Of a stretch of DNA of 32,471 nucleotides, positions 10,948-29,754 are shown piece by piece. The notes under the pieces are model-generated. The model saw only the letters and a program-made list of their open reading frames with translations. It did no database searches and was not told the DNA's origin. Position numbers and translations under genes: made by a program. Source of the DNA: Puniceicoccales bacterium (GTDB lineage Bacteria > Verrucomicrobiota > Verrucomicrobiia > Opitutales > JAIRKQ01); NCBI GenBank assembly GCA_031284015.1, contig JAITAS010000012.1, positions 1 through 32,471 of the forward strand, read 5' to 3'. Positions within the stretch are counted from its first letter, which is position 1. The number at the start of each line of letters is the position of its first letter.

Positions 10948-10973
10948 AAATATCTTAGGTAGTTTCTGCTTCT

Positions 10974-11771
10974 ATGAAAAATTACCTCGAGCTTTTGAAT
11001 CAAGTATTAACCAATGGAGAAAAACGAAATGATAGGACGGGAGTGGGGACCATCGGATTATTCGGAGCCCAACTGCGATTTAATCTGATAGATACTTTTC
11101 CCGTTATTACAACAAAGTTCGTAAATTTGAAAGCAGTAATCCATGAACTTTTATGGTTCATCGGTGGCAATACCAACATCAAATACTTGCAAGACAATGG
11201 TGTAAACATTTGGAACGAATGGGCCGATGAAAATGGAAATTTAGGACGTGTTTATGGGGCTCAGTGGAGAACATGGCAAGCTCCTGACGGACAGATAATA
11301 GATCAACTGGCCAACGTCATAGAACAAATCAAAAATGATCCCTTCAGCCGTAGACACATCGTATCAGCTTGGAATCCAGGAGAAATAGGTAGAATGGCTT
11401 TGCCTCCATGCCATGCATTTTTTCAGTTTTACGTATCATCCGATGGAGGGTTAAGCTGTCAATTATACCAACGAAGCGCTGATATGTTCCTGGGGGTACC
11501 TTTCAATATTTCCTCATATTCCCTTTTAACCATAATGGTTGCCTATGTCTGCAATCTTCATCCCAAAGAATTTGTACATACGTTTGGAGATTTGCATATT
11601 TATACCAATCACCTGGAACAGGTAGAAGAGCAACTATCTCGCAAACCGCTATCCCTCCCAACCTTAAGATTAACCCGACCAGTGCATTCCATCGACGACT
11701 TCAAATATGAAGATTTCGAAATCGTGGGATATGAACATTGTCCAGCCATAAAAGCACCAATCGCAGTATGA
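10974..11771 (+). CDS. thyA: Thymidylate synthase
   Basis: [69 protein letters not shown]. Confidence 0.98.
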
Positions 11772-12310
11772 TGAATGTGTCGACAGACCTCTATGATATT
11801 CTATTACAAAGATTAGATATTCGGGCCATTGCAGCAATGGCAGCCAATGGCATAATTGGGAATAATAATTCCATTCCCTGGGACGTTCCAGAAGAAATGG
11901 CATTTTTCCGTAGAATGACACAAAATGCATCGGTGCTAATGGGCCGTAAAACTTTTGAATCCATTGGCCATCCTCTCCCCAACCGACAAAATATTGTAAT
12001 GACAAAGGATACGGCTTGGCATCCCGACGCTGTCACCACGATACAAAAATTGGACCAACTACTAGAGCTTGACATTAAGGGTCCCATTTGGGTATGTGGC
12101 GGTGCGATGATCTACGAAATGTTATTTCCGGCCTGCCGAGAATTATATCTAAGTACGGTTTTTGGACAATTTGATGGCGATACAAGAATGCCACCTTTTG
12201 GGGAGATATTCGTTATACATAAAACAATTTTAACTTGCTCGACATTCAAAGTTGACCATTATGTGGCCAGACGATATGCGAATATTGAGAAAAGTCCGTT
12301 ATCTTTGTAA
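11768..12310 (+). CDS. folA: Dihydrofolate reductase
   Basis: [61 protein letters not shown] overlap with the thyA stop. Confidence 0.93.
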
Positions 12311-13487
12311 AAAACTTTTGAGAAAATTGTATGGGCTGATCAATCATGCAGAAATATTCGCAACAGATGTGCTATACGATAGAAAGAAATCATTCGGGAC
12401 CGCCTGTGTGGCCGTAATTCTGCTGCCCTTATCCTTCTTGTTTGTCCTGATTGTAAAATTGAGGCATCTTTTGTATGTAAAAAGAATTTTTACGTCAGAT
12501 ATTTTGGGATGTCCAGTCATCGTTGTCGGCAATTTGACGGTTGGGGGAACGGGAAAAACCCCAGTCGTAGAAAAAATTGCCCGTGAATTAAATGAGAGAG
12601 GGAGAAAGGTAGCAATTCTTAGTCGCGGCTATAAAAGTAAAGGTGAACCCAAGTGGAAAGCTTTTATCCGTTGGATGACCCATGGTGATGAACCACCACC
12701 TAAGGTTGTAAGCAACGGAAAATCGGTACTACTGGATTCCGAAGTGGCTGGAGATGAACCATTCATGTTGGCTAAAAATCTGCCTGGAATTGTTGTTCTT
12801 GTTGACAGGGACCGTGTCAAAGCAGGGCATTATGCGATTAATAAGTTTGGAGTCGACGTAATAATTTTAGACGATGGCTTTCAATATTTCCCTCTGCGAG
12901 GGCATATAAACCTTCTACTAATCGATAAAACTAACCCCTTTGGAAATAAACACCTGTTGCCCCGTGGAATTTTACGCGAACCAATCTCCCAAATCAAACG
13001 AGCATCCTACGTTCTTTTAACCAAATCGAACAATATTTCCAATGATTCCATCATCGATACGATAAAATTATATAATTCGAATGCTAAAATTATTGAATGT
13101 GCCCACTTCCCGAGAAATCTATCAACTATACATAGCAAGGAAGTAAAGCCATTCAATATCATCGAAGGGCAAAAAATAATGGCATTTAGTGGAATTGCAT
13201 CCCCCGATGGATTTGAAAATTTTTTATTACAGCATGGGGCAGAAATTGTTTACAGAAAAAGGTTTGTCGACCATCACAGATTTTCCCAAAATGAACTGGA
13301 AAATATCTTCAACATTGCATGTGCTAAGGAAGCTGTCCTTGCAATTACAACGGAAAAAGACGCCGTCAGAATTCCAAAGGATTTTAATCCCCCAATCCCA
13401 ATCTACTTTTTAAAAATAGACATAGAAATTATTTCAGGTGAAGAAATATTTGAAGAGGCAATTTCCAAATTTGATACAACCATTTAA
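12276..13487 (+). CDS. lpxK: Tetraacyldisaccharide 4'-kinase
   Basis: [58 protein letters not shown]. Overlaps the folA 3' end. Confidence 0.95.
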
Positions 13488-13502
13488 AATTATGGCAATG
13501 GC

Positions 13503-13850
13503 CTAAGAGTTGGGCATTTGCTTCTTTTTTTCCTTCAATTGCTTGCAATAATCTAGCATCTTTCGATTCATATCGTACATTGCCTGTGATAGTTCACCGG
13601 GGTAAACAACTGACATTTTTCTAACTGATTCGACTGTTTCTTCGGAAATTTTTCCTTCGTCGTATGCTTTTTCGGCTGCTATTGGAAAATGCTTCATCAG
13701 TCCATCTATAAATTTTTCAGCATCAACCTCTTTCAAATATTTTATCGCAACGTCCAAATTTGCAATGGTCTCTTTTATCTTCTTTTTAAGCTTAATTTTG
13801 GAAACTTTATTGGAAAAGGCTTCACCGTAGAGATCAAAGATTTTATTCAT
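13503..13850 (-). CDS. Hypothetical charged helical protein
   Basis: 115 aa with ATG start, preceded by AAGGT; fills the gap between lpxK and secA. No motif recognised. Confidence 0.6.
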   Translation of the reverse strand: MNKIFDLYGEAFSNKVSKIKLKKKIKETIANLDVAIKYLKEVDAEKFIDGLMKHFPIAAEKAYDEGKISEETVESVRKMSVVYPGELSQAMYDMNRKMLDYCKQLKEKKKQMPNS

Positions 13851-14011
13851 TTATTTACCTTTGGTTCATGTCGAAGAATTGTTGCAGAATTTTTACTTTT
13901 GTCAAACCCTGAATTAAATTAAAATTCGAACACATAGTGTTTACTTTTTCTAAAATTATTGGTTCGACGTTTGATTAATTGTATTTAAATCTATGGTCTC
14001 AATATATTGTA

Positions 14012-16948
14012 ATGATTGGAAAATTTTTTAGATTGTTCGTTGGGCATACCCACAAGAAATTTATCAAAGAATGCCAGCCGGTAATAACAAAAATCAACGG
14101 AATAGAGGAAACATATAAGTCGTTATCCGACGGAGCCATCGTCGCAAAATCGGAGGAACTAAAACAACGGGTGGGGAAAGGAGAATCCCTTGATGATGTG
14201 TTACCGGAAGCATTTGCGTTGGTAAAAAACACAGCTCGCCGTCTGTGCGGAAAGGAAATTGAAGTATGTGGCCATAAATTGATTTGGGATATGGTGCACT
14301 ACGATGTGCAACTTTTGGGGGGTATTGCCTTACACCAAGGGAAAATTTGCGAAATGGCAACGGGAGAAGGGAAAACCTTAGTTGCAACATTGCCACTCTA
14401 TTTGAATGCTCTAGCCGGAAGGAATTGTCACCTGGTTACTGTCAATGATTATCTTGCCCGTCGAGATGCGGAATGGATGGGCTATATCTATAGATTTCTC
14501 GGCATAGGGGTTGGGTGTTTGCAAAATGAAATGGACACGGAAGAACGCCAAAAAGCATACGCTTGTAACATAACCTATGGAACGGCATCGGAATTTGGGT
14601 TTGATTACTTGCGCGATAATGGCATGGCAACTTCTTTGGAGGAGCAAGTTCAACGGGAACATTACTATTGCATCGTCGATGAGGTTGATTCCATCCTAAT
14701 CGATGAAGCACGAATACCCCTAATAATTTCCGGGGCAGCACCAAAAGATGAAGAAAGTATGCCCTACATGGAGTTAAAACCATCGGTTGCCAACCTGGTT
14801 GAGTTACAACAAAAGCTGTGCAATCGTTTAGCCTCGGAAGCCAAAACCATACTGGATAATAGTGGAGATGCCTATGGTCGTGAGGCCTATAAAAAGCTCT
14901 GGCAAATAAAGCTAGGTATGCCAAAAAACAAACAGTTTTTACGCTTCATGGAGAATGGAGTATACCGAAAAAATTTCGACAAATTTGATCTCGAGATGAA
15001 TTCTGAATTACTCAAGGGCGAAAAGCACCAAATCAAGGAAGAGCTGTATTATTGCTTGGATGAGAAGGACAACCAATCGGATTTAACCGAGTTGGGACGT
15101 ACCAATTTGAGTAACGATGAAAATGCATTTGTCCTGCCCGACTTGCCATCAATATTTTCCGCTATCGATGTGGATGATTCCCTATCGCCGGCCCAAAAAA
15201 TTGACAAGAAACGCCATGCGGAGGAAGAATTTTCCCTAAAGAGCATCAAAATTCACTGCCTAAATCAACTTTTACGGGCATATTCTTTGTATAATAAGGA
15301 TGAACAGTATACCATTTTGGACGGTAAAGTTGTGATAATTGATGAAAATACTGGTAGAGCAATGCCCGGACGCCGATGGAGTGAAGGGTTACATCAGGCC
15401 ATTGAAGCTAAGGAAGGTGTAAAAATTGAGCGAGAATCTCGTACATATGCCACCATCACAATGCAAAACTACTTTAGAATGTATGAAAAATTGGCCGGCA
15501 TGACGGGTACTGCCGAAACGGAAGCACAGGAATTTAACGACATTTATCACCGATCTGTCGTAGTGATACCAACTCATAGAAAATGTATTCGTATTGATTT
15601 AAACGATGAAATTTATAAAACCCGTAGGGAAAAATACAATGCGGTAATCGCAGAGATTAAAGCAGCTAACCAAAAGGGACAGCCTGTTTTAGTGGGAACG
15701 ACGTCCGTCGAATCTTCGGAATTGTTGAGCAAAATGCTGAAGCGGGAAATGATAAATCATAAGGTTTTGAATGCCAAATATCACCAACAGGAAGCAGAAA
15801 TTATTGCCCAAGCTGGACAAAGAGGGGCCGTTACGATTGCAACCAACATGGCAGGACGTGGTACGGATATCAAATTGGGAGATAGTGTTTCGGAATTGGG
15901 AGGACTGTTCGTAATTGGTACGGAAAGGCATGAATCCAGGCGGGTCGATCGGCAATTACGCGGTAGATGTTCCCGCCAGGGAGATCCCGGATATTCGAAA
16001 TTTTTCGTTTCTCTGGAAGATTCTCTGATGCGAATTTTTGCCTCGACTGGTCCCATAGCACGGCTATTGCAGAACACATTTAAGGAAGGGGAAGTCCTGG
16101 CTCACCCTCTGTTGAACCGCTCCATTGAAACAGCTCAGAAAAAGGTAGAACAACACTATTATTCAATTAGAAAACATTTATTACAATATGATGACGTCCT
16201 CAATCAACAAAGGAAAATTATCTATTCTCTCCGGAGCGATTCCCTAAGCGAGAATAATACTCAAAATGTTATCTTTGAAATTATACACAATGAGTTGGAG
16301 TCTAGGTTGGAACAATTTTCGGATAGACTAATGGACGATAGGGATGACGATGACAGTCTTAAAACACTGTTGTCGTGGGTAAATATTAATTTTCCTTTGA
16401 ATTTGAAGGTGTCCGATTTGAGCAATAAATCCAAAGATACAATCTATGAGCTAATTTTATCGAAGATAAAAAAGGCCTATGAAATAAAACAATCTACTGA
16501 CGATCCAGAATCCTTAAAATTTATCGAACGGATGATACTTGTCCGAGCAATTGATAGTAATTGGCAAAAACATCTAACGGAAATGGATACTTTGCGGAGT
16601 AGCGTTGGGCTTCGGGGATACGGTCAACGAGATCCGATAAATGAATATCGTACGGAAGCATTTGAATACTTTAACACAATGTTGAAGCAGATCAATTCTG
16701 ATGTCTGTGCTCAATTATTCCGATCGGCAGGAAGCGCCCAAGCGTTCAATAGAATGGTCAATGAATTGCGTAAACACCTTGTGATGTCGGGGGGTACTTT
16801 GGAAATCGTACACGACGGACAACGGCAGAATGAAAAGAATGAGCCTAAAATGGTCATTAGATCAGTTTCACAACCTAAAATTAACAGAAACGATCTTTGT
16901 CCGTGTGGAAGTGGAAAAAAATATAAAAAATGTTGCGGCCTAAAGTAG
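14012..16948 (+). CDS. secA: Preprotein translocase ATPase SecA
   Basis: EMATGEGKT, VTVNDYLA.RD, EFGFDYLRDN, VDEVDSILIDEAR.PLIISG, GRRWSEGLHQAIEAKE, GMTGTA, ATNMAGRGTDI, QLRGR.SRQGDPG, C-terminal CPCGSGKKYKKCC zinc site. Confidence 0.98.
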   Translation: MIGKFFRLFVGHTHKKFIKECQPVITKINGIEETYKSLSDGAIVAKSEELKQRVGKGESLDDVLPEAFALVKNTARRLCGKEIEVCGHKLIWDMVHYDVQLLGGIALHQGKICEMATGEGKTLVATLPLYLNALAGRNCHLVTVNDYLARRDAEWMGYIYRFLGIGVGCLQNEMDTEERQKAYACNITYGTASEFGFDYLRDNGMATSLEEQVQREHYYCIVDEVDSILIDEARIPLIISGAAPKDEESMPYMELKPSVANLVELQQKLCNRLASEAKTILDNSGDAYGREAYKKLWQIKLGMPKNKQFLRFMENGVYRKNFDKFDLEMNSELLKGEKHQIKEELYYCLDEKDNQSDLTELGRTNLSNDENAFVLPDLPSIFSAIDVDDSLSPAQKIDKKRHAEEEFSLKSIKIHCLNQLLRAYSLYNKDEQYTILDGKVVIIDENTGRAMPGRRWSEGLHQAIEAKEGVKIERESRTYATITMQNYFRMYEKLAGMTGTAETEAQEFNDIYHRSVVVIPTHRKCIRIDLNDEIYKTRREKYNAVIAEIKAANQKGQPVLVGTTSVESSELLSKMLKREMINHKVLNAKYHQQEAEIIAQAGQRGAVTIATNMAGRGTDIKLGDSVSELGGLFVIGTERHESRRVDRQLRGRCSRQGDPGYSKFFVSLEDSLMRIFASTGPIARLLQNTFKEGEVLAHPLLNRSIETAQKKVEQHYYSIRKHLLQYDDVLNQQRKIIYSLRSDSLSENNTQNVIFEIIHNELESRLEQFSDRLMDDRDDDDSLKTLLSWVNINFPLNLKVSDLSNKSKDTIYELILSKIKKAYEIKQSTDDPESLKFIERMILVRAIDSNWQKHLTEMDTLRSSVGLRGYGQRDPINEYRTEAFEYFNTMLKQINSDVCAQLFRSAGSAQAFNRMVNELRKHLVMSGGTLEIVHDGQRQNEKNEPKMVIRSVSQPKINRNDLCPCGSGKKYKKCCGLK

Positions 16949-18012
16949 CAGTTGCCATGTCGGGAGGCGTTGATAGCGCGGTATCCGCATTGCGATTAAA
17001 AGATGCCGGCTACCAGGTGCATGGTATTTTTATGCGTACGTGGAATGCTGAAGATTCGGGAAATCCGATAGCTGACTGCCCATGGAAGACGGATTTGAAC
17101 GATGCGAAAAATGTCTGCGAAAAGCTTGGCATAACATTTGAAATCATCAACATGATATCCCAATACCGCACACTGATCGTAGAAGAACTGGTGGAAGGTT
17201 ATCGTAATGGGATTACGCCGAATCCGGATGTTTTATGCAATGCGCGGATAAAGTTTGGCATGCTCAAGCAATATGCCCGGGCCAATGGATTTGAAAAATT
17301 TGCGACAGGGCATTACTGTAGAGTAATAACCAATGAAAATGATACCGTCGACATCTTGGAGGGGGTTGATAAAAACAAAGATCAATCATACTTCCTTGCC
17401 ATGCTTTCCCAGGAACAAATACGAAATACACTATTCCCCGTTGGTGAACTGACAAAACCTGAAGTTCGCAAAATCGCTGAAAAGGCAAATTTGCCAAATT
17501 GCAAAAAAAAAGATAGCCAGGGAATTTGTTTTTTGGGCAAGGTAAAGATTCAAGATTTTTTATCGCATTATATACATGATCAACCCGGTAATATTGTCGA
17601 TTCCCAGGGCAAAATCGTTGGTCAACACCGAGGACTATTTCGATTTACCATAGGCCAGAGGCATGGGATCAATGTCCCATCAAATCTTGATTTTGCCTAC
17701 TATGTCGTCGTTGGAAAAGATCTCACCAAAAATCAATTGGTCGTAGAAATTGAACGACCGACATCAAAATTTCTATTCAGGGATGAATTTTTTATTCATG
17801 GTTTAAGCTTTACCAATGGAAGTCTCGGAGAATATGAAAATTTGCTAGCTCGCCCACGATACCGTGATCCCGCCCAAAGAATTGAGTTTTTTCGAACGGG
17901 AACCAGTACGGCTCGTGTTATCTTTAAACAACCTCAGCGGGCAATAGCAAGCGGACAAGTTATAGCATTCTATCGAAATGTAATCCTACTTGGTGGTGGC
18001 ATATTTGACTAA
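16930..18012 (+). CDS. mnmA: tRNA 2-thiouridine(34) synthase
   Basis: AMSGGVDSAV, TPNPDVLCN..IKFG, ATGHY, KDQSYFL, KKDSQGICF, FTIGQR.G, GQ...Y...LLGGG. Overlaps the secA end by 19 nt. Confidence 0.97.
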   Translation: MLRPKVAVAMSGGVDSAVSALRLKDAGYQVHGIFMRTWNAEDSGNPIADCPWKTDLNDAKNVCEKLGITFEIINMISQYRTLIVEELVEGYRNGITPNPDVLCNARIKFGMLKQYARANGFEKFATGHYCRVITNENDTVDILEGVDKNKDQSYFLAMLSQEQIRNTLFPVGELTKPEVRKIAEKANLPNCKKKDSQGICFLGKVKIQDFLSHYIHDQPGNIVDSQGKIVGQHRGLFRFTIGQRHGINVPSNLDFAYYVVVGKDLTKNQLVVEIERPTSKFLFRDEFFIHGLSFTNGSLGEYENLLARPRYRDPAQRIEFFRTGTSTARVIFKQPQRAIASGQVIAFYRNVILLGGGIFD

Positions 18013-18084
18013 AACTTTGAGCCATGTCATATTTCGACAATTATCCTAAAGTTTATTGGATCCGACATTAAAAATATCATAACC

Positions 18085-18987
18085 CTATTTGAATAAAAGA
18101 TTTTCGATATTTCGCGCACTATAAATGAATGTCCTGATGTCATTCATGGCTTCATTTGAGTCTTCTAACAAAAAATGCCCTGCCATTTGGTAACGTTTAT
18201 ACGCGGCATTTGGTAGTATTTTTCCCCAAGCTTTTAGAACATCGAAACCGTAGCGAAAATCATCGTCCGACCAAAAAAATTTAATTTTTTTATTACACAA
18301 AATAAACGCTTTTTCGCTGATTATACTTAAAGTTTTCAAGGAAGGATGGTCAGGTAACCATGGAATATCGTCTATCTCGGCAGCAATAGCTACGCGGTCG
18401 GAAAATTTTTCGTATGGCCATAAGTATCCTCTAATAACATCTCCATCGAGTATTGAAAATGTTCCCAAATGTAAACAGGCCCAAGCAAACAAATTAAAGA
18501 ACCTTGAACATAAGAATGTAAAAAGAGGAAATTTGAAAAGTAAAATGATGGCTGGCAGCCTTGGTAAGGAAAAAACAGCGGAATTCAATAGGGACATACT
18601 ACTAATCCTTTCGGGCCAACGTTCTGCTATGGCCAAAGCCACTGCAACACCGAAATCTTGCGCTACAATATGAAATTTCTTGAACTGTTTTATCTCCGCA
18701 AAAGAAATAGCATTATCTATGTGGGTTTTGATGTCGTATCTACAACTTTTCGGTTTATCGGATAACCCATGTCCAATGTGGTCAATCGCTATGCACTTAA
18801 AATCTGAGCGCAGCAAAAGTATCAAATTTCTAAAAAAAAATGACCATGTGGGGTGTCCGTGCAAAAATAATATTGTCTCCCCCGTGCCCTCTTCAACATA
18901 ATGCATAATTGAACCATTTTTTAACTTGGCATAATGTTGTTGGAATGGATAAACTTCTCTTAAAAATAATGGTAATGACTTCTCCAT
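18085..18987 (-). CDS. Alpha/beta hydrolase of the haloalkane-dehalogenase/OleB-like group
   Basis: YPF..HY....G..MHYVEEG.G..ILFLHGHPTWSF, IAIDHIGHGLSDKP, VAQDFG nucleophile elbow, C-terminal AGHFLLED. Confidence 0.85.
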   Translation of the reverse strand: MEKSLPLFLREVYPFQQHYAKLKNGSIMHYVEEGTGETILFLHGHPTWSFFFRNLILLLRSDFKCIAIDHIGHGLSDKPKSCRYDIKTHIDNAISFAEIKQFKKFHIVAQDFGVAVALAIAERWPERISSMSLLNSAVFSLPRLPAIILLFKFPLFTFLCSRFFNLFAWACLHLGTFSILDGDVIRGYLWPYEKFSDRVAIAAEIDDIPWLPDHPSLKTLSIISEKAFILCNKKIKFFWSDDDFRYGFDVLKAWGKILPNAAYKRYQMAGHFLLEDSNEAMNDIRTFIYSARNIENLLFK

Positions 18988-19148
18988 CTGCCAATTTAAA
19001 CGTAAAATTCTTTGCAAATTTTCATAAATTTACAACTTAAATTTTTATTCTTTTGGACTAAAGCTACGGCCACTTTCCTGAATGTTTTTGTGAGGCCGTA
19101 CTGAACCTTCTAAATCCCATCGATCCTATTTTTCCGATGAAGTTCAAT

Positions 19149-19850
19149 CTATTGTATGACAAAATAGATTCTAGAAACGTTTCCATTTTTCTTTTCTCGA
19201 ATCAATTCCTCGAATATGTTTTGAGAAAATGGTAAAAGATTCCCCTTGTCCCATCCACTGCCCCTATCGCTGCTATGCTTATATCTCCTAGTATATACCG
19301 GCTTGAGGTATGCATTTTTAGGCTTCTTAATGAAAAAATACTTGAAGGATAAAATTTTAAAATCATGGTCATAGGTCCTATCATTTACCTTTATGCTGCA
19401 CCAACTAATAGCCAGTGAATCCTTGGCTGTTGACGATCGCGAAGTAGAATTAATAGCCAGTGAATCCTTGGTTGTTGTTAATAATCGCGAAGTAGAATTA
19501 AATGATTGAAAATAAATCAACAATGGTAAATGGCTATCGTAGATTCCTAGTCTCATAAATTCTGGCATGTCGATAGCTTGCAAGTATACGTCACTTATTT
19601 TGATTATATCTTGTATCGCTCTGTTATTAAGATAGCCATTGCCTTTGGGCATAAAACGTTTGGATGCTATTTTTGTAAAGGTTTCATAGTAAATGATGCT
19701 TCGTTCCGTTTGTAATGCCTGTTCATCGGCAATTTTAAAAAATTTACCACTCATTACTAAAACACTCATGATTGATATCAAAAAAACGCACGCGATCGAC
19801 GCAGCTATAAGTATTTCAGCCAATGTGAATCCTTTTTGTGAAATTTTCAA
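19149..19850 (-). CDS. Prepilin-type N-terminal cleavage/methylation domain protein (pilin/pseudopilin-like)
   Basis: MKISQKG|FTLAEILIAASIACVFLISIMSVLV: class III signal with Gly-1, Phe+1, Glu+5 and a hydrophobic helix. TTG start. Confidence 0.8.
   Translation of the reverse strand: MKISQKGFTLAEILIAASIACVFLISIMSVLVMSGKFFKIADEQALQTERSIIYYETFTKIASKRFMPKGNGYLNNRAIQDIIKISDVYLQAIDMPEFMRLGIYDSHLPLLIYFQSFNSTSRLLTTTKDSLAINSTSRSSTAKDSLAISWCSIKVNDRTYDHDFKILSFKYFFIKKPKNAYLKPVYTRRYKHSSDRGSGWDKGNLLPFSQNIFEELIREKKNGNVSRIYFVIQ
19406..19498. repeat. Imperfect in-frame tandem duplication (45 bp + 48 bp) inside the prepilin-like gene
   Basis: TAATAGCCAGTGAATCCTTGG(C/T)TGTTG...ATCGCGAAGTAGAAT at 19406-19450 and 19451-19498, encoding NSTSRLLTTTKDSLAI / NSTSRSSTAKDSLAI. 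Confidence 0.9.
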
Positions 19851-20287
19851 AATATACGCGTAAATTAAATGTTTCTAATCTGAACGGCTGTTATGGACCC
19901 CAACAACGGACCCTAACATTCATCCTGCCACGAGTTTATGAACAAAGACAATCTTGTCAACTGAAAGTTAACAAATGTTGTCTTTAAAATAAACCCCTTG
20001 AATCTGATCAAAAGTAGCTGCCCATCTGGAGCATGTTGCATGCCAAATCAAAAAAGAATTTCGACGATTAAACCGATTTTTTAAAAGGATGAACAAGCCC
20101 TCATAAAGCAAAGCAAGTGGCGGCGAACGGGTCTATCACGGAGCAGAAATAGTACGATACTAGCCACTGAATCAACAAAAGAATATTTCTACCCTGTGCT
20201 ATGTTATATGCATCATATTGCTGTTTGCATTAATTTTTCTTTTATTTTTGTTTTTCACATTTGTAAAGGGTGTGTTGTGAAAAAAAA

Positions 20288-20334: not shown

Positions 20335-23300
20335 ATGTCACAAACCGATTGGGATCCTATTAAAACAGCCTTTAAATTAACCGGTGTTACCGAAATCTCG
20401 GATATAAGCAGCATACGAATGGGCCAAGGGTATGCTGATTTGCACAAAACGGCAACCAAAATCCAACACACAATCCTAGAAGAACGCAAATGTTGGAGTG
20501 GAAGGTTAAAATTCGCTATTTTCCCGGAGAGGCTTTTGCTGTGGAGTTTACGTAAAAATTCTGGTATTGATAAGCTAATACGAGAATTCAAAAATGGGTT
20601 AATCACAATATATCACGCTTCTGAAGGTTCGGAAGTAAAACTTCAAATAGAAGCACTTTTCGGAAATATTGGAGAAGAGATTCCAACAATATGCCAAGAA
20701 CAAAGAGATGAAGCCATAGTGCCCCAGAATATTTCGTGTACAGGTCTTGAGTCTTTCAAGCACATGGAATCACTCTTACATGGAAGAAATGACGTAAGTA
20801 GTCCAACAATGAATGAGTCTGCTGGAAAATTTTTCTCAGCATTTGAAAAACTAGGCATCACTCAAATAGTTGGGATTAATTCTTTAACGGAAGAACATTT
20901 GACCAAATGTATTGATGATAATAAGCCAGTTGTAGTGTTAGAAGGGACAAATGCTTTGCTGATTAGAAAAAATGAAGATGGTGGAATAGAGATTACGAAA
21001 TTTACCACAGTATCCAAAGATTTGAACACTAACGGCGGTATCCAGATGGATTCCGGAGATTATGTTAATGCATTTCAATTGTTTAACCTTAAATATGAGC
21101 CTAGCGAATTCAATGAGATACATTTTGGTCTAAAAAGCATCAATGATGGAAAACCACCAGAAGCGATTCCCCAGGGGAAAATGTTTTTGATAAAATCTAG
21201 GGGAAAAAATCCAACGACCCCGCAATATGAATTGTTAAACCTCCTTCAATATGCCGCCAAGGGTGATTCAGCAAAAGAGAGAGAGGTTGCAAGGTTTGAA
21301 ATAAATGAATACATTGGTCATTTATCCAACGCTGCACATAAAATGAGAAGCGAAGGTGAGATCATGTCTGACCAGCATATGATTAATTTTAATGCTCTAT
21401 CACAAGATATACAGAAAAGAATTTTGCTCCTACAAGCATCCGGAAAGATTAGTGCAGAATTGGCGTCGGAATATTTATCACACATAGTTGGTATATCACC
21501 AACAAGAACCGAACCACAACCATCGGGTCCAACCCAACCGTCGCAAGGTGGAAGTTTTGACACACTCAAAATAAAAAATATATCATATTCTGCCGCTTCC
21601 AATGTGCAAACTTCACGGGGACACAATGTACAAACCAATGGCGACATTCTTTCATTCTTGCAGCAAGCCAACAAATCTCATACTGCTGGTCTCTCTGCTC
21701 CTTTGGTCATGGGATTCGCTACTGCAAAACGATTTGAAGATTTAGTAAAAAACCAAGATGAGACCTTTAAAGCTTTGGAAGGAAAAGACAGGGAAGATGC
21801 GGCGATCAATGTTGGTAATTTTTTCAGAATGGCCGCATTGTATATAGAATATGATAAAAGAAATGGAATTGCCATTCCAGGCAGCAAGCAACAATTTTAT
21901 GATAGTCTCATAGCATTAGGATTAAGGATTTATAAAGAATATGGACGGAAGCATAATTTTTTCGATGGAGAGGAGTATGGGAATGATCGTGTAAAGCATT
22001 ATGTTATTCGCAATCAAGATAGTAATGGAGTGACTCATGAGATTGAGATGTGTCGTGAAATACATGATGCCGTAAGAGACGACCAGATAACGAATGTTCA
22101 AAGCGCAATGGAAGCAGTAAGAAATATTAGCGACGTTTCGCTCAAGGAAACGGTTGCTACGTCCTTCTTTAGAGTACCAATTGATGGTGAGCATTATAAG
22201 CATGTAAATAGCACAACAAAAATTGGAGCGGCGGCCAATGGCTTTGCGTATATGCTTTTCAGTCTGACCGCAGACTCAAATGAAGGTACTGCTTTTTATA
22301 CGCAAGCTCGTATTGCTCCAAAGGTGATAAAAAACCTATCATTTGGAGAACAATTACAAAAAAATTACAAAAAAATTTGTGAATTTTTGAACAACAAATC
22401 CCAAGGAGAAGTGGCAAAATCACAAGAGTCAAAACGGTTCCTTTTTTTAGAACATTGCTGTTTACCCTCGAATCCTTCGAATGGAAACATTGTACAAAAG
22501 GCCGAAGCTATGCTTTCGTGGCTACAAACTTCAGGCAACACTAGCATCTTTGACGACCTTGAAGCGCAAAGAATATTTTGTAAATTGCTATGCGGAGACA
22601 TTAATAGCCCTCAAGCATTATCCATAGCTTTAAAAGATGGGGAAACCTGTAGACAATTTGAACGGATTGTAAATCAATTTTTTCAGCACTCTCTAAGCAA
22701 TTTTCCAAATCCAATTGAACAAGATGCAGACCTTCAAAAATATAAATTTTATGCATCCCTTTACATTCAGCTAAACAAAACAATAGAGGAGGCCAAAGGG
22801 AAAAAGCCCGATCTCGACACTTCTGTTTTTAACAAAAAAGTTAAATTAGATGGCACAAGCGATGAAATACAAATTTTTGCATGTGTTTTGTGTCAGAAAA
22901 TGATCTTAGGAGACACATTAACACCCGAAGAAATGCTAAGATGTACGGACCCAAAGATGATGATTTGGCCAGAAATGGCAGGAGCAAGCGATACGCTTCT
23001 CAATCGAGATCCCGAAGATTCCTCCGGAATAAAAAATATGTTCGATGGTCCTGTGTTAGATTCTTTGAGAGATTTCATAGTCAGGCAAAAAGATGATCTA
23101 AACAAAGATGGTTGTCATTGCATTGCTGATGCATATGCGAAACAACTAGGGTATGCAGGACCTTCGGTAACCATCGATTGCGTGAATAGATTGATAACAA
23201 TCAAGGATACAACAACTAATGCCAGTGTTACCATCGATTTGAATAATTTTGTGCGTTTGCGTGACGGAATATATCCGGAAGAACATGTGCAAACAAACGA

Positions 23301-26300
23301 CTCAGAACATCCAATATTAGCTTTGCTTGGTGTTAACGGCACCAATATACATCACAGGGTAAAAGTGAATGGAAATACTAGTGTCGTGGATGGAAAAATA
23401 GTTGTTGATAACAAAACCAACAGAGTAACAATGAATGGGAAGGTATTTGTTAGCCGTGTTCAAAATTCCAGCACCAGGCGGCTGCCAGCAGAACTGGTAA
23501 TGGAAAAAATGCTTGACCGTTTTTTACCATTTGTTGATGAAAATGACAAGACATGCCAAAAAGTCTACTTTTATGATAAAACGTCGCTAGATCAACCGGT
23601 ATTCGTGCTAGAAAATGGTACACTATATACTTCAACTAGTAATAAATATTATAAAGTGCCCACTCTTCTTACTGGCCATGTTTTTGCAGATCCTCTTTTA
23701 CAACACCTTAATTCTTCTGAAATGAGTAATGTTTTTGCGACAAAAGATGAGGGTGGTGCAATTTCTTCGTACGTAATTCCAGAACTACGCTACAACGACC
23801 AAATATTACAGTTTTCCCGAGGAAGTGATGGTCAATTACATTTGGTAAGCAATGAAAATTATATCCTATCAGAACCTCCAATACCCAACCCGTTGGAGGG
23901 AAATACGCTAAATTATGTTTGTTTGCGGTCAAAAGATAATCCAAGTGACTATAAATTCATTCTGATAAATGATAAACATCTTATTGACACTTCGTCACTC
24001 GATCAGGCGACAAAAAGTGAAATATCCGTCCTGGGGCAGGATGTTTTAGAAATTGGGTTTAATACTATCACTGGGTTTGATCTAGGTGCTGATCATCAGG
24101 CAACTGGAATAATATTAGCAGGAAGATTATTCGACATAGGGAAAAATGAATTGGCCCTAAATATTTTAAACAAGATAGATATGCGGACAGTGATCGCCCT
24201 AAAAAACAACACACTTTTACAAACTACTTTGCGCTCACTCATAACGAATAAAACAACTGGCGCACTTGATTTGAAACGAGATCAACCTTTGGAACGGAAT
24301 TTAGCAGCTTTCAAAATTCTAACACTGTTACTTGAGTCGGATCCCTACAATTTTCGCAATTTTTTATTGGCCAAAAATCCTGATGGTACTATTAATTTTG
24401 GTGACAGTTTTGATCTAGTGACTCAAGTGTGTTCTTTGTATCAGGCATTGGTTGATGCCAAAGAAAATTCAACGCAGCAAGTTAGTCTTTCCAAAGAAGC
24501 TGAGCTTGCTTTTACGGAAGAAATTATGGGTGCCATGGGCCAAGCTTTACAAGCGGCATCTGGGGTAGGCCGAGCTCTGCTGAGTATGATGCCCGAGTCA
24601 ACGCTTCTAGAAATGCCAGAATTTGGACTATTGAAATTATTTGAGCAGAGGCATAGGTCACTCGTGGAAGAACTTGGGGCTAAAACTAATGTTAGCTATA
24701 TTACTAAAGTTGCTAAAGACTCTAAAGATCATGTCGTAGTACACGTTAAGCCGGGAGGAAAACGGTCTTTCGAAAAAGCTAATACCTTTTCATCCGTATT
24801 GCCCATAAGAAATACGAAGATGTTGGCAACACTTAGAAAGGAAGCCCAAAATACGGCTCTATTGAAAACACCGACTAATATAGAACGAAGAAAAGCTCTC
24901 TTGCGAAAATGTTGTAGAAGTGATGATGAAATCAATAGCACTGACCAGCATGAGCTGTCTGACAGCCAGAAGAAAGCTTACATAGCATTTAGGAACGAGA
25001 TGAGATTTCCTACATCTCTGCCATCTGATGAAGTAATGCTAAACAGCATGCAGGAAGTGTTTGTTGCTGAAATAGAAGGTTTTATTAAAAGTCAATCTAT
25101 AGAGAGTAAACATGCACAAGCTTTAGATATAGAGAACTCTGCTAGACAAAGCATTGTAGGGGAAATAGGTGGAATATTGCGGCCCGTTAAAGCACAGCAA
25201 ATCGATGGCGGTTCAGCAACATCTCCAGATGGCATAGACAAGTGGAAAATTAGCACGTTGATGGACTTTGTTTCACAAGATGAAACAACAATCCAATCCA
25301 GTGCTTCCCTAGCTCCAAACGACAGAAAATTAATTTTAGAATTTAAAAGAAAATATTCAAGTGATATCAATAATTCGACTTTTGAAAAAGATCACCGATC
25401 AGAGTTGCTTGATTTGGCTAATGCAATCTCCGGTTCGGGAAAAACATTTTCATCGAATGATAGGCAGATAATTGCTCAATACAAAACTACAGCTGACAAA
25501 GAATTAGGCAGATACAACGAAGAAATGAACCTGGCAAGATCTCAAGACTTGAGGGCAAGAGCGGTTGGTGAACTGTATGAAATCAACGCTAACAGTTTTA
25601 CTGCTAAAAATGAAGAGAAAAGCACCATAGACACAACCATTGATAACTTAACAACACAAATTTCGGAAGCAAATAAGGAAGTAGAAGAAATAAGGAAGCA
25701 ATTGGATACAAAATTTTCTACCTGTTCCAAGACAATGGAAAGTTTGCGCAAAACAAAATTAGCCAAAATGCCAACACTGGATGACGCAAGAAAGGCCCTG
25801 GTTTGTGCCCCTTCTGACCCGGATGGTGACTGGTCCAAGTCGATAAAAGTTCTTCGGGATGTTAATCCGGAGTTTACGGATGCAGATTGTAAAGAGATTG
25901 TTGACCTTATCAAACAATTACTGCAAGCTTCCACGAGCATCAAATCCCTGGAACAGCTGAAAACTGCTATCGAAAATGTACATAATAAGGGACGAGCTGT
26001 CTTAGAAGCAAATCAAAATTTGCCAGGATACTATGACACAGACCTTAGCCAAGAGCAAAAAGATTTTCTGCTGGCAAAAGATCAATTGATTATTGCATAT
26101 GAAAGTGTAAGGACGTATGACCCAAAAACAGAGATGGAAGCATTAGCTTTTGAGGATATAGTAGGGTTTCGCGTAAGGGGAGCTCAGGCTAGCATTGTCA
26201 AAAATGTAATAGCTCAGCTGCAAACAAACGAGGCCAATAATGAGCAAACGGGTGTTACTTTCCAACTCATGATGGGCGGGGGCAAAACAAGCGTTGTTCT

Positions 26301-29300
26301 TTCCCAGCTGGCTCATGCTATAAGCACACAAGGTAAGATTCCACTATTTGTTTGCCACCCTTCGCAATATACCGCTATGCTAGGAAATTTAAGAATTTTT
26401 CAAGAAAGCAGGTATTCGCAGGAGGTTATTAGCATTGATGAAAGCAAATCGGATCTAGCAGATTCGAACAAGCTATCTGGAATATTAAGGAAGCTCAAAC
26501 GAGCTAAGAATGGAGGCGGGTGCCTAGTAATCCAAGCTCCAACCATTAGAGCTATCAAGTTGGAATTCATAAGGACAAGTCGATCGGCGATGGAAAAAAA
26601 TGATCCTGTGCTTATGGCACGGGCGAAACAGCTGGCAGAGATACTATCATACATGAAAGAAAATTGTACACAACTTTTGGATGAAGTAGACTTGAACCTA
26701 GACATATCAAAGTCGGTAAATTTCCCAGGTGGTAGCCGGAAAACACTTGCTAGTGATCAAATCGATGTCGTTGCTTCAATGTTAGGTATGATTACGGAAG
26801 ATACCGACTTGAGAGAGGCATTTGTTAATGACAAATTTGGGGTTGAAAAAAATGGGAAAAGGCCCGTTAACCAATTTAAGCAAAAAATCATCGACAACTG
26901 TTTTGACAAAATTCAACAATTGGATTCCGAGATTTCAAGAGATGATTTGGCAAAATTTATGCTCGGAAACCAAGAACCAAGCGAATCATTTAAAAAGTCT
27001 TGGGAAAAGATCAAAAGTTCCCATCAAAAGGAAGCAAGAGACATTGCGCTACAAAAGGGGATGCTATCTATTATAGATAGTGCAGCAAAAAAAGAGTATA
27101 ATCGGCATTATGGATTTAGAGGGGATGGTTCCGTCATTCCTTACCAAGGAGTAGGCACGCCATCTTCAGGAGAATTTGGTAATGTTTATGAGCAAGCATA
27201 TTACTTTTTTGCAGCCATTTTGCATGATGGAATTCAAGTATCTCAAATAACTTCACTGGTTGAAGGATATGTTAACGGATCATTGCCTAAATCACTAAAA
27301 AGCAGCTTTGAGTCGGTATGGAGGGAATGTGGGCTTGGAACACCCAGTGACCTCAAAAAGATGTCAGCTGTACAGCGTAATGCAATAATTAATAAGGCCG
27401 TTTCTCAGTTAAATGCTAAGAAAGGATTTAAAGAATTTATGCTACTTGCGAAGCAAATAGCCGCAACTGTGATAAAATATAATTCAGAAACACTTGAATG
27501 CAATGCGATATCAATGGTAGATATGGGCAAGACATCCGTGGGATGTACAGGAACTCCTTGGAATATGCAAACATATCATTCCGCATTTCAAGGGGAAAAT
27601 AAAGCCCTCTTAGAATTGGGGACGGAAGGCAGAATTATACAGAAATGGGAAAAAGATTTTCGAACGGGAGATTCAAAAATATTAACTTCGTCAAATACAA
27701 CCACAACCGTATCTGGTATGCTAGATTCTTATCGCGCAGCACATAAAGATGATTCTAGAGAGTTACACGCCATAATAGATGCGGGAGGGATTTTTAAGGA
27801 TAAAACAAACGACGAGGTTGCTGGAGATATACTAAAGTATTACCAAGATGATCTCAATGTGGGATTTGTAGTTTACCTTGGAAAAACAGTAACAGGAGAT
27901 GAGTCTTTCTTTGTAATGAAAAAGGAGGATCCCGATAATCCCATCCCAATCCCAGATACCAGCCCTGCAACGATAGAACGTGTTGTTGGAAAAGGTAACA
28001 TCGATAAAATTTTCGTATACTATGATGAATTAAGATGTACTGGATGCGACATACCTTTACCCAAAGATGCTAATGCCGTGTTAACCATAAACCCCAATAG
28101 TACTCCTATTCGAACGGCATTGCAGGGCGTTTTGCGTGCAAGGAAATTTTTGGATTCTCAACAAGTAGATATTTGTATTCCACAAGCTTTAGTACCCGAA
28201 GGCGTAGATCTAAACAATCAAACGGAAGCCATGACAAAAATATGTTCCTATTGCATAGAAAATCAATCGGTGATATTAGCACAACAAATGTACAAGTCAT
28301 ATAGAGCTCAAACAGCTAATTGCTTGAATAGCATACTCTTCGAGAGATTACATGCCAATGTTAGTCAACATTCTGGTAAGAGAATCTCAAAGGAAGAACG
28401 GAAAATATTGGACCTATGTGAGAAATTTTTATATTCTCAGTTCGAAGCAGATCCTTTGAAATTGTTTGGCGAAATTACTTCCGAGCAAGATGCATATAGA
28501 GCCTTGGAAGGATATTACAATAGTCTCTTCAGAGAAATTAAAAAATCAGATAAAGAGCTAGCACAAGAATTTCAGGCACGGGCCGAAAAAATACTAAATA
28601 AAGCTAAAGACGCTTTAAAGTTTACAGTTCAAGGAGGTACAATTGACGCCGGAACAGAAGTAGAGCAGGAACAGGAGCAAGAGCAGGAGCAGGAGCAAGA
28701 ACAGGAGCAGGTCACCGACGACAGTAAAAATATTAGGCAAGAACAGACTTGGGCCGTTTTTAACGCAGCATCCCAAGAGGATAGTCCTAATGCCAATAAT
28801 CCTTCTACTGTTTCTGAAGGAGAAGCTCCTCTTTCCAGTACGGATGCAATGCAACAAACTACTGAACCCGCCAATCTGCCATTGAGCGAGAAAGCAAAAA
28901 TGTTGTTTGAAGACTTAAAAAGCAATACAGGTCTAAGTGAACTGATGCTTCAAGATCGAGAAGTCCTAATAAGTTCAATGGATCAAAGGTTACGACAATC
29001 GGCAGAACGCAACAACATCTCTGACAGAGAATTGCTTGTGATATTGAGAACAGCAAACAATAATCCGGATAGCCATACGCTTCCGCTTATTGCGAATCAA
29101 TTATCCATTAAAGATCAATTACTTGACCGTGTCAAGGATAGAATACTGAAAGCGGCTCCTTCCTTTGACTCTTTGATTTCTCAAGGAGGTACAAATATTC
29201 CTGAAATATTACCTGCCAATAATTGCGCTACTTTTCGGCGGGGAAGTGGAAATATTTTTGACAGCAATGTACAAATGACAACTAATCTTGCGCAAAATAT

Positions 29301-29754
29301 AGAAGGTAGCGAGTGGATAAACGATTCCCAAAGAAAAAGTGCACAATTTGTGTTGGTTTACAGGACTGACACCGATGGCACTTCCGGTACTGGTGGCACA
29401 TACAAAACACTGTTTTTAAGTGATAAAGATGCTCAAGAAATCGGGGAAGCAATGTCGAACTTGAACGTAAAAAATTGCTGGATGTTTAATGCCGGAGGAA
29501 CCCCATCTTCCGCCAATCCGCTGGCAACCATTGACGAAGGTGTACTAGCCGCAGGGCGAAAAGCAGCTGTTGATTTGGCCATTTTATATGGCAATTTCCA
29601 CCATTTAAATTCTACGGAAGATAACCAACGTATGCTTCAAGAACATTTACAAACTTCACAAACAGCGCAAGAAAGTTTTCTGAAACGAGTACAAATCTTA
29701 CAACCTCGCGAGTATGACGATGCCGTAGCTTTTGCACAAAAGTCAGCTGCTTGA
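20335..29754 (+). CDS. Giant 3139-aa protein with a C-terminal SF2 P-loop ATPase (DUF3638/DUF3645-like); candidate effector
   Basis: Uninterrupted 9.4-kb ORF with SD. Motifs: FE...FRVRGAQ (26149), Walker A FQLMMGGGKTSV (26260), Walker B LLDEVD (26674), GCTGTP (27541), AIIDAGG (27769), YYDELRCTGCDIPLP (28018), LQGVLRARKF (28120), EVEQEQEQEQ (28657). This order is as I recall it for DUF3638/DUF3645 giant proteins. Confidence 0.8.
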   Translation: MSQTDWDPIKTAFKLTGVTEISDISSIRMGQGYADLHKTATKIQHTILEERKCWSGRLKFAIFPERLLLWSLRKNSGIDKLIREFKNGLITIYHASEGSEVKLQIEALFGNIGEEIPTICQEQRDEAIVPQNISCTGLESFKHMESLLHGRNDVSSPTMNESAGKFFSAFEKLGITQIVGINSLTEEHLTKCIDDNKPVVVLEGTNALLIRKNEDGGIEITKFTTVSKDLNTNGGIQMDSGDYVNAFQLFNLKYEPSEFNEIHFGLKSINDGKPPEAIPQGKMFLIKSRGKNPTTPQYELLNLLQYAAKGDSAKEREVARFEINEYIGHLSNAAHKMRSEGEIMSDQHMINFNALSQDIQKRILLLQASGKISAELASEYLSHIVGISPTRTEPQPSGPTQPSQGGSFDTLKIKNISYSAASNVQTSRGHNVQTNGDILSFLQQANKSHTAGLSAPLVMGFATAKRFEDLVKNQDETFKALEGKDREDAAINVGNFFRMAALYIEYDKRNGIAIPGSKQQFYDSLIALGLRIYKEYGRKHNFFDGEEYGNDRVKHYVIRNQDSNGVTHEIEMCREIHDAVRDDQITNVQSAMEAVRNISDVSLKETVATSFFRVPIDGEHYKHVNSTTKIGAAANGFAYMLFSLTADSNEGTAFYTQARIAPKVIKNLSFGEQLQKNYKKICEFLNNKSQGEVAKSQESKRFLFLEHCCLPSNPSNGNIVQKAEAMLSWLQTSGNTSIFDDLEAQRIFCKLLCGDINSPQALSIALKDGETCRQFERIVNQFFQHSLSNFPNPIEQDADLQKYKFYASLYIQLNKTIEEAKGKKPDLDTSVFNKKVKLDGTSDEIQIFACVLCQKMILGDTLTPEEMLRCTDPKMMIWPEMAGASDTLLNRDPEDSSGIKNMFDGPVLDSLRDFIVRQKDDLNKDGCHCIADAYAKQLGYAGPSVTIDCVNRLITIKDTTTNASVTIDLNNFVRLRDGIYPEEHVQTNDSEHPILALLGVNGTNIHHRVKVNGNTSVVDGKIVVDNKTNRVTMNGKVFVSRVQNSSTRRLPAELVMEKMLDRFLPFVDENDKTCQKVYFYDKTSLDQPVFVLENGTLYTSTSNKYYKVPTLLTGHVFADPLLQHLNSSEMSNVFATKDEGGAISSYVIPELRYNDQILQFSRGSDGQLHLVSNENYILSEPPIPNPLEGNTLNYVCLRSKDNPSDYKFILINDKHLIDTSSLDQATKSEISVLGQDVLEIGFNTITGFDLGADHQATGIILAGRLFDIGKNELALNILNKIDMRTVIALKNNTLLQTTLRSLITNKTTGALDLKRDQPLERNLAAFKILTLLLESDPYNFRNFLLAKNPDGTINFGDSFDLVTQVCSLYQALVDAKENSTQQVSLSKEAELAFTEEIMGAMGQALQAASGVGRALLSMMPESTLLEMPEFGLLKLFEQRHRSLVEELGAKTNVSYITKVAKDSKDHVVVHVKPGGKRSFEKANTFSSVLPIRNTKMLATLRKEAQNTALLKTPTNIERRKALLRKCCRSDDEINSTDQHELSDSQKKAYIAFRNEMRFPTSLPSDEVMLNSMQEVFVAEIEGFIKSQSIESKHAQALDIENSARQSIVGEIGGILRPVKAQQIDGGSATSPDGIDKWKISTLMDFVSQDETTIQSSASLAPNDRKLILEFKRKYSSDINNSTFEKDHRSELLDLANAISGSGKTFSSNDRQIIAQYKTTADKELGRYNEEMNLARSQDLRARAVGELYEINANSFTAKNEEKSTIDTTIDNLTTQISEANKEVEEIRKQLDTKFSTCSKTMESLRKTKLAKMPTLDDARKALVCAPSDPDGDWSKSIKVLRDVNPEFTDADCKEIVDLIKQLLQASTSIKSLEQLKTAIENVHNKGRAVLEANQNLPGYYDTDLSQEQKDFLLAKDQLIIAYESVRTYDPKTEMEALAFEDIVGFRVRGAQASIVKNVIAQLQTNEANNEQTGVTFQLMMGGGKTSVVLSQLAHAISTQGKIPLFVCHPSQYTAMLGNLRIFQESRYSQEVISIDESKSDLADSNKLSGILRKLKRAKNGGGCLVIQAPTIRAIKLEFIRTSRSAMEKNDPVLMARAKQLAEILSYMKENCTQLLDEVDLNLDISKSVNFPGGSRKTLASDQIDVVASMLGMITEDTDLREAFVNDKFGVEKNGKRPVNQFKQKIIDNCFDKIQQLDSEISRDDLAKFMLGNQEPSESFKKSWEKIKSSHQKEARDIALQKGMLSIIDSAAKKEYNRHYGFRGDGSVIPYQGVGTPSSGEFGNVYEQAYYFFAAILHDGIQVSQITSLVEGYVNGSLPKSLKSSFESVWRECGLGTPSDLKKMSAVQRNAIINKAVSQLNAKKGFKEFMLLAKQIAATVIKYNSETLECNAISMVDMGKTSVGCTGTPWNMQTYHSAFQGENKALLELGTEGRIIQKWEKDFRTGDSKILTSSNTTTTVSGMLDSYRAAHKDDSRELHAIIDAGGIFKDKTNDEVAGDILKYYQDDLNVGFVVYLGKTVTGDESFFVMKKEDPDNPIPIPDTSPATIERVVGKGNIDKIFVYYDELRCTGCDIPLPKDANAVLTINPNSTPIRTALQGVLRARKFLDSQQVDICIPQALVPEGVDLNNQTEAMTKICSYCIENQSVILAQQMYKSYRAQTANCLNSILFERLHANVSQHSGKRISKEERKILDLCEKFLYSQFEADPLKLFGEITSEQDAYRALEGYYNSLFREIKKSDKELAQEFQARAEKILNKAKDALKFTVQGGTIDAGTEVEQEQEQEQEQEQEQEQVTDDSKNIRQEQTWAVFNAASQEDSPNANNPSTVSEGEAPLSSTDAMQQTTEPANLPLSEKAKMLFEDLKSNTGLSELMLQDREVLISSMDQRLRQSAERNNISDRELLVILRTANNNPDSHTLPLIANQLSIKDQLLDRVKDRILKAAPSFDSLISQGGTNIPEILPANNCATFRRGSGNIFDSNVQMTTNLAQNIEGSEWINDSQRKSAQFVLVYRTDTDGTSGTGGTYKTLFLSDKDAQEIGEAMSNLNVKNCWMFNAGGTPSSANPLATIDEGVLAAGRKAAVDLAILYGNFHHLNSTEDNQRMLQEHLQTSQTAQESFLKRVQILQPREYDDAVAFAQKSAA
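28663..28710 (+). repeat. Coding hexanucleotide repeat, (GAR CAR)x8 = (EQ)8
   Basis: GAGCAG GAACAG GAGCAA GAGCAG GAGCAG GAGCAA GAACAG GAGCAG. Confidence 0.95.

Follow-up and report, generated by a model that had tools for sequence, protein, structure and literature searches.

A predicted SecA-like architecture for the DUF3638 ATPase module of a giant protein from a Puniceicoccales bacterium

Contig JAITAS010000012.1 of a Puniceicoccales bacterium (assembly GCA_031284015.1), analyzed here over its 32,471 nucleotides and referred to as the window, encodes a giant protein of 3139 amino acids (aa) and a canonical SecA. We investigated the ATPase module of the giant protein, and read it as a probably active and very divergent superfamily 2 (SF2) ATPase from the DUF3638 family, whose confidently predicted model follows the plan of SecA. 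On the predicted model, this is a new variant of the SF2 ATPase, in which a two-RecA motor is combined with a SecA-like arrangement of insert and helical scaffold. A polypeptide substrate is plausible, and we give roughly even chances to the full proposal of an ATP-driven clamp that acts on polypeptide in the host or eukaryotic cytosol. The substrate, the clamp mechanism and secretion are inferred.

The module and its comparator comprise the following features. Single-letter residues follow the module numbering (protein aa minus 1879), and conservation was read from alignments of 52 and 31 family members.

20335-29754, + strand: giant open reading frame (ORF), 3139 aa (9420 bases), from the ORF list and its translation
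26107-28614, + strand: DUF3638 ATPase module, aa 1925-2760, made of RecA1, insert, RecA2 and a predicted helical scaffold (PF12340, AlphaFold2 (AF2) model, VIA alignments)
26143-26187, + strand: upstream conserved element LAFEDIVGFRVRGAQ, aa 1937-1951, at the Q-motif position (L58, F60, E61 and Q72 at least 90% conserved)
26269-26289, + strand: Walker A, or motif I, MMGGGKT, aa 1979 (Lys1984; M101, G104 and K105 invariant in the 52 and 31 sequences)
26680-26691, + strand: Walker B, or motif II, DEVD, aa 2116-2119 (D237 and E238 invariant)
26704-27510, + strand: inserted domain, aa 2124-2392, 269 residues, mostly helical with a predicted two-strand stem, between DEVD (2116) and TGT (2405)
27103-27186, + strand: insert patch with the highest conservation, RHYGFRGDGSVIPYQGVGTPSSGEFGNV, aa 2257-2284 (consensus YG..V.PY..P..FG)
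27541-27558, + strand: motif III GCTGTP, aa 2403 (G527 and T528 at least 90% conserved or invariant)
27559-28206, + strand: RecA2 domain, aa 2409-2624 (alpha/beta pattern in the model)
28036-28059, + strand: motif V CTGCDIPL, aa 2568 (D693 conserved or invariant)
28120-28143, + strand: motif VI LQGVLRAR, aa 2596 (Q718, R722 and R724 invariant)
28219-28365, + strand: 49-residue helix after RecA2, aa 2629-2677 (DSSP helix 750-798, predicted local distance difference test (pLDDT) about 90-96)
28492-28611, + strand: helix-turn-helix hairpin, aa 2720-2759 (DSSP helices 841-859 and 861-880, pLDDT above 90)
28663-28704, + strand: (EQ)7 acidic low-complexity linker closing the module (translation and string search)
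13979-16948, + strand: canonical SecA of the same genome, a comparator outside the system (Pfam matches)

Predicted structure of the module and its likeness to SecA

The AF2 fold of aa 1880-2760, computed from a 31-row alignment, reached a pLDDT of 87.8 and a predicted template modeling score (pTM) of 0.85, and three structure searches with this model placed SecA first. In a Foldseek search against the PDB, SecA occupied ranks 1-9, with E values between 3.6e-7 and 5.5e-6; the first non-SecA match was ISW1 (E 1.7e-5), and DinG and RIG-I/MDA5 were also behind SecA. In VIA, SecA took ranks 1-21 of 969 chains, with alignments spanning model residues 46-866. A first-pass annotation made from the letters of the DNA had proposed a SecA-related motor with an insert of its own, and a structural search had been set beforehand as the test that could refute it; that search put SecA above the nucleic-acid helicases, and the insert lies at the position of the preprotein-binding domain.

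The alignment of full-length SecA covered 423-469 residues (502-562 for chains in SecY complexes) and reached model residues 863-866, as compared with 341-347 residues, ending at model residues 738-744, for SecA reduced to its motor. Including the rest of SecA thus raised the score by about 5 Z units and lengthened the alignment by 80-120 residues. Since the motor of SecA by itself reaches no more than 15.1, we attribute this surplus to the architecture, that is, to the long helix and the helical hairpin that follow RecA2. In the alignment ranges, model residues 863-866 correspond to residues ∼818-821 of E. coli SecA, and on the domain map of SecA, the stretch matched by the helix and the hairpin would be that of the scaffold helix and the two-helix-finger region. 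Going by these ranges, the 49-residue helix would stand in place of the long scaffold helix of SecA, and the hairpin, from the ranges only, may be equivalent to its two-helix finger.

The claim that an inserted domain sits where SecA carries its preprotein-binding domain held up as well. Folded alone, the insert between motifs II and III reached a pLDDT of 94.1 and a pTM of 0.90, showing that it is predicted to fold independently. Its long terminal strands (5-14 and 258-266, assigned by DSSP) probably pair into a two-strand beta stem that carries the insert, since they are the sole strands of matching length. The window SecA has its SecA_PP_bind domain (aa 350-476) in the corresponding interval, which runs from aa 234 to 507. 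The gap between motifs II and III is large in 104/104 family modules, with 259-458 residues and a median of 323.5. The most conserved patch, RHYGFRGDGSVIPYQGVGTPSSGEFGNV, forms a beta-hairpin in the model and is a candidate contact site for the substrate or for another domain; its residues G381, P390 and P397 show full invariance or conservation of at least 90%.

Altogether, the module would share with SecA and SecA2 (PDB 2fsf, 4uaq, 1tf5 and 5eul) a two-RecA motor, an insert between motifs II and III on a predicted beta stem, and a long helix with a helical hairpin after RecA2. Unlike SecA, it has no detectable sequence kinship with that family; its insert of ∼270 residues is helical, with no clear match to a solved fold among the structure matches listed; its wing region would amount to only ∼40 residues, going by the alignment ranges; it lacks the SEC-C tail that the window SecA has; and it lies at aa ∼1925-2760 inside a soluble 3139-aa protein whose family is also eukaryotic.

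Sequence comparisons and competing explanations

The assignment to DUF3638, which the first-pass annotation had suggested, was borne out by Pfam. PF12340 matched aa 1926-2154 with 64.3 bits against a cut-off of 31, and 24/24 aligned relatives matched as well. The two other models proposed for the same check, PF12359 (DUF3645) and SecA_DEAD, found no match in the giant protein. For DUF3645, there was none at E ≤ 1 over the whole protein or at E ≤ 5 over six segments, despite a conserved motif V region, and Pfam did not detect DUF6606 (PF20255) in the giant protein either.

The module has the features that define an SF2 ATPase, namely GxxGK[TS], DExD/H and tandem RecA domains with motifs III, V and VI. 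From its position, the upstream element LAFEDIVGFRVRGAQ may take the role of the Q-motif. SecA kinship had initially been read from a line-up of five motif pairs over 26149-28150, which corresponds to aa 1939-2606. The ten strings are indeed present, at aa 1979, 2115, 2403, 2568 and 2596 of the giant protein and at aa 126, 233, 507, 626 and 658 of SecA, and the spacings given for the giant protein and SecA are correct (132 and 102 residues from the Walker A Lys to DEVD, 287 and 273 from DEVD to GxTGT, 27 and 31 from GxDI to the motif VI Gln). As a sign of SecA, however, the line-up failed. Judged by sequence, these are real catalytic motifs but a generic SF2 set, not a SecA-specific one, and their alignment with SecA is by itself what any SF2 pair would be expected to give; BLASTP, Pfam, hhalign and a language model showed no preference for SecA. 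The GxTGT look of motif III appears partly peculiar to this protein, since the family consensus is SGTPWN at motif III and TGTDIP at motif V. The likeness in spacing also looks closer than it would against a shorter SecA, because the preprotein-binding region is long across the lineage: the DEVD-to-GMTGT gap is 273 residues in the window SecA and 272-279 in 14 of the 29 SecAs of the phylum caught by pattern.

Several further results weigh against a SecA plan. At the sequence level, BLASTP of the module against the window SecA gave E 1.8, outside the motifs. SecA_DEAD (PF07517) and P-loop_SecA did not match the giant protein, and SecA_DEAD matched 0/24 family members at E ≤ 1, as compared with weak ResIII matches in 11/24 (21.2-21.4 bits against a cut-off of 22.5) and DEAD matches in 2/24. 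We compared a 104-sequence module alignment by hhalign with alignments of 29 SecA, 30 DEAD-box, 30 UvrB and 26 Mfd sequences, drawn from 30 genomes of the phylum, leaving out 4 RecG loci (too few) and one SecA locus. UvrB scored 39.4, SecA 31.4, DEAD-box 31.3 and Mfd 24.4, none of them significant. The 17 matches of the family profile to PDB sequences at E ≤ 10 included neither SF2 proteins nor SecA, and a PDB sequence search with the module itself returned two irrelevant matches at E 0.4. Language-model neighbors in the ESM Atlas were ResIII, DEAD and Helicase_C_2 clusters at 0.80, which is noise level. Isoelectric point (pI) and net charge were uninformative, with a median pI of 6.55 for the module and acidic values for the DNA enzymes UvrB and Mfd too. 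At the structural level, SecA reduced to its motor scored Z 15.1-15.7 and other SF2 motors 14.3-14.7, which counts as a tie under the rule of the tool, and no SecA chain appeared among the structure matches listed for the insert. All the structural evidence comes from one predicted model, read as alignment ranges, and the helical surplus matching SecA could be convergent. The likeness to SecA may reflect either common descent or convergence.

Two weak matches in the giant protein were rejected. An ARMT1-like (DUF89) match at window positions 28318-28734 (aa ∼2662-2800; profile positions 4-150 of 311) scored 25.5 bits, just above its cut-off of 25, and was not reproduced with an 881-residue fragment; we treated it as spurious because it overlaps the scaffold helices, and it is probably an artifact of helical composition. 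A match to SPP1_Dit at aa 942-978 was under the cut-off.

These comparisons also bear on the most serious competing explanation, namely an SF2 enzyme of the ResIII, Snf2 or XPD/DinG kind that works as a nucleic-acid-dependent helicase or translocase, carries an accessory insert like the Arch domain of XPD/DinG and resembles SecA as a by-product of added helices. We consider this possible though doubtful. The weak ResIII and DEAD matches, the nearest named language-model clusters, the UvrB profile as best hhalign score and the tie of the motor alone with helicase families all speak for it, as do DinG, RIG-I/MDA5, ISW1, CSB and DdmD at Foldseek E values of about 1e-5 to 1e-4. The family consensus MGGGKT and SGTPWN also resembles motifs I and III of Snf2. 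Yet every one of the sequence matches is under its curated cut-off or at noise level, and the families listed at E ≤ 1 for the 24 members include neither SNF2-rel_dom nor Helicase_C_2. XPD/DinG, RIG-I-like, Swi2/Snf2 and DEAD-box enzymes score 5-7 Z under full-length SecA, and their accessory domains do not explain the C-terminal helices of the module. The domains fused to the module in its relatives, described below, are protein-interaction modules.

We find it unlikely that the module is instead an ATP-driven conformational switch or assembly scaffold, regulating the other ∼2300 residues or partner proteins without threading a polymer. This would fit a module that is the sole conserved part between fast-diverging flanks, occurs as three divergent paralogues within a single genome of 0.92 Mb and carries an insert without a known fold, and a weak match to a STAND-type NTPase (E 0.013-0.097, far under the cut-off) points the same way. 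Against it, the SF2 coupling motifs III, V and VI are all conserved, as in translocating enzymes, and the long helix and hairpin are the force-transmitting parts of SecA. Finally, the idea of a genuine additional SecA, either SecA2-like or a "secondary SecA_DEAD protein", that exports the giant protein or dedicated cargo through SecYEG has a precedent in giant SecA_DEAD proteins with proposed self-export, in the available text of their description (bioRxiv 10.1101/2023.11.21.568195), but is highly improbable here: the giant protein has no SecA_DEAD, SecA_PP_bind, SecA_SW or SEC-C (PF02810) match and no predicted transmembrane (TM) segment (maximum Kyte-Doolittle 19-residue window of 1.28), the family is abundant in eukaryotes, where relatives carry DUF3645, and a complete canonical SecA is already encoded in the genome.

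The family and the genome that carries the module

Searching 1.84 billion representative proteins gave 1390 relatives at E ≤ 1e-3; 838 of these reach ≤ 1e-10, and 194 reach ≤ 1e-30. Among the best 150, most have lengths of 2000-5000 aa and match near residue 2000; the nearest, with 68-75% identity, come from Puniceicoccales bacterium. Conservation is confined to the module: aa ∼1900-2800 of the giant protein are common to 98-145 of 150 fetched relatives, and the flanks to 0-6, mostly 1-2. In a prokaryotic survey with one genome per species, 147 pattern matches were found, 116 confirmed and 80 listed. The 80 listed loci fall into Chlamydiota (37), Puniceicoccales (17), Opitutales (1), Gammaproteobacteria (15, including Legionellales, Coxiellaceae, Berkiella and Francisellaceae) and "uncultured bacterium" (10). 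Within the order, the DUF3638 Pfam model matched 3/61 sampled genomes, all of 0.9-1.0 Mb, and 0/14 control genomes.

Relatives also show which domains accompany the module. All 10 long eukaryotic relatives combine DUF3645 with DUF3638, and the domains fused in these 10 include PUB, SPRY, WWE, WW, EF-hand, PH, thioredoxin and Vps62; one of them is named "ubiquitinyl hydrolase" in UniRef. In bacterial relatives, the fused domains are ankyrin repeats. The domain lists of the 10 eukaryotic relatives and of the bacterial ones include no nucleic-acid-related domain, and the fused domains point to protein rather than nucleic-acid partners. Some relatives (P0074, P0007 and others) end in a C-terminal repeat array with a weak leucine-rich repeat match, which is absent from the window protein. 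This array, at profile positions 1551-1662 of alignment A3 and thus outside the module, accounts for the sole strong PDB-sequence match of the family profile, 9zem_A ("HeliScrew4", E 1.1e-12).

The assembly comprises 921,555 bases in 71 contigs, with 88.6% completeness and 39.8% GC. Giant DUF3638 frames occur three times in it, with lengths of 3157, 3188 and 4076 aa, and together occupy ∼31 kb, or ∼3.4% of the 0.92 Mb. The 3188-aa paralogue (contig C27, about 10465-20028, - strand) aligns to the window module at E 2.3e-51. The 4076-aa paralogue takes up the whole 12,231-base contig C69 and was missed by phmmer with the full protein but matched by the Pfam model (35.6 bits). Both frames run off their contig ends. 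Type III secretion genes are present as SctD (window 1990-3333, - strand), SctV (contig C70, 914 bits) and SctC (contig C27, 333.8 bits), the last one ∼6 kb from the paralogue on the same contig after conversion of strand coordinates. Full-length matches to UvrB, RecG and Mfd were absent from the assembly, where weak matches fell on one 744-aa frame of contig C7. The assembly size, the type III secretion parts and the lack of full-length UvrB, RecG and Mfd point to a reduced, host-associated genome. At the N-terminus of the giant protein, we saw no Sec-type signal by eye.

Elsewhere in the window, the canonical SecA matches SecA_DEAD (395 bits), P-loop_SecA, SecA_SW, SecA_PP_bind and SEC-C, and has an ATG at 14012 as an alternative to its TTG start. 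A 255-aa ORF (8083-8850, - strand) matches the C-terminal half of NuoN alone (profile positions 242-468 of 472, E 4.9e-12) and may represent either a truncated remnant of this NADH dehydrogenase subunit or a frame whose start was called wrongly. The first 2000 bases have a GC content of 48%, against 35-43% elsewhere in the window. No NCBIfam family matches a 349-aa ORF there (273-1322, + strand), which overlaps with a 286-aa ORF on the opposite strand. An Rfam scan of the window gave no match.

Related systems and a proposed mechanism

DUF3638 has surfaced in several eukaryotic settings. In the portions of the articles available, it is a domain of a large gene family in microsporidia (PMC5423893), a domain of a polymorphic predicted Plasmodiophora effector (bioRxiv 10.64898/2026.10.14.759018) and part of new Tetrahymena genes, in a 2025 paper that describes the "precise molecular mechanisms" as "undefined" (PMC12615304). 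The literature we found states no mechanism for DUF3638, and no link between DUF3638 and SecA turned up in the literature searched. The available text of Zhang et al. (2012) refers to "SecA-like helicase-related domains" of Amoebophilus effectors but gives no detail (PMC3482391). The giant DUF3638/DUF3645 proteins of fungi, ciliates, microsporidia, plasmodiophorids and Thecamonas, some of which have been named "ubiquitinyl hydrolase" automatically, carry the same ATPase module as the window protein; relatives typically reach 3000-5000 aa, and their module lies near residue 2000. They differ from it in DUF3645 and DUF6606, which are present there and undetected here, and in their unrelated flanks.

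A second comparison is offered by giant proteins of Omnitrophota and actinobacteria, which, according to the available text of their description, have true SecA_DEAD and preprotein-binding domains and many TM helices yet have neither scaffold nor wing, and are proposed to have a role apart from housekeeping SecA, with self-export suggested (bioRxiv 10.1101/2023.11.21.568195). As far as that text goes, these "secondary SecA_DEAD" proteins resemble the window protein in that a SecA-type motor lies within, or is duplicated next to, a very large protein. In other respects, they are its opposite: the module studied here has no SecA Pfam match or TM helix and a different insert, yet it has a predicted scaffold-like helix.

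Taking the SecA-like plan as our preferred reading, we propose the following mechanism. The two RecA domains would bind and hydrolyze ATP at their interface (Lys1984, Asp2116/Glu2117 and Arg2601/Arg2603). By analogy with SecA, the long helix would transmit the ATP-driven opening and closing of the RecA cleft to the stalked insert, which would act as a clamp on a substrate, polypeptide being likelier than nucleic acid. The module would operate outside Sec export, in the host cytosol as part of a secreted effector or at the symbiont-host interface; such a site of action is probable because the protein is soluble and the family occurs in eukaryotes and intracellular bacteria.

A wider and more speculative version, which we regard as rather improbable as a whole, holds that DUF3638 modules are an unrecognized sister lineage of SecA. 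These polypeptide clamps or unfoldases of the eukaryotic cytosol, with a new insert replacing the preprotein-binding domain (PPXD), would have been exchanged between eukaryotes and Chlamydiota, Legionellales-like Gammaproteobacteria and Puniceicoccales, and would be deployed by the bacteria as giant effectors that remodel host proteins.

If the SecA-like architecture is true, it would provide the first testable mechanism for the widespread DUF3638 family, whose proteins are among the largest of many protists, fungi and intracellular bacteria with reduced genomes. The model offers an ATP-driven clamp in which a stalked insert would work together with a scaffold helix, specifies the catalytic residues and delimits a module of 836 residues. 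Should the substrate be nucleic acid, the module would still represent a new SF2 architecture with an insert that has no solved fold match. Should it be polypeptide, the SecA-type motor would extend past membrane export and into eukaryotic cells.

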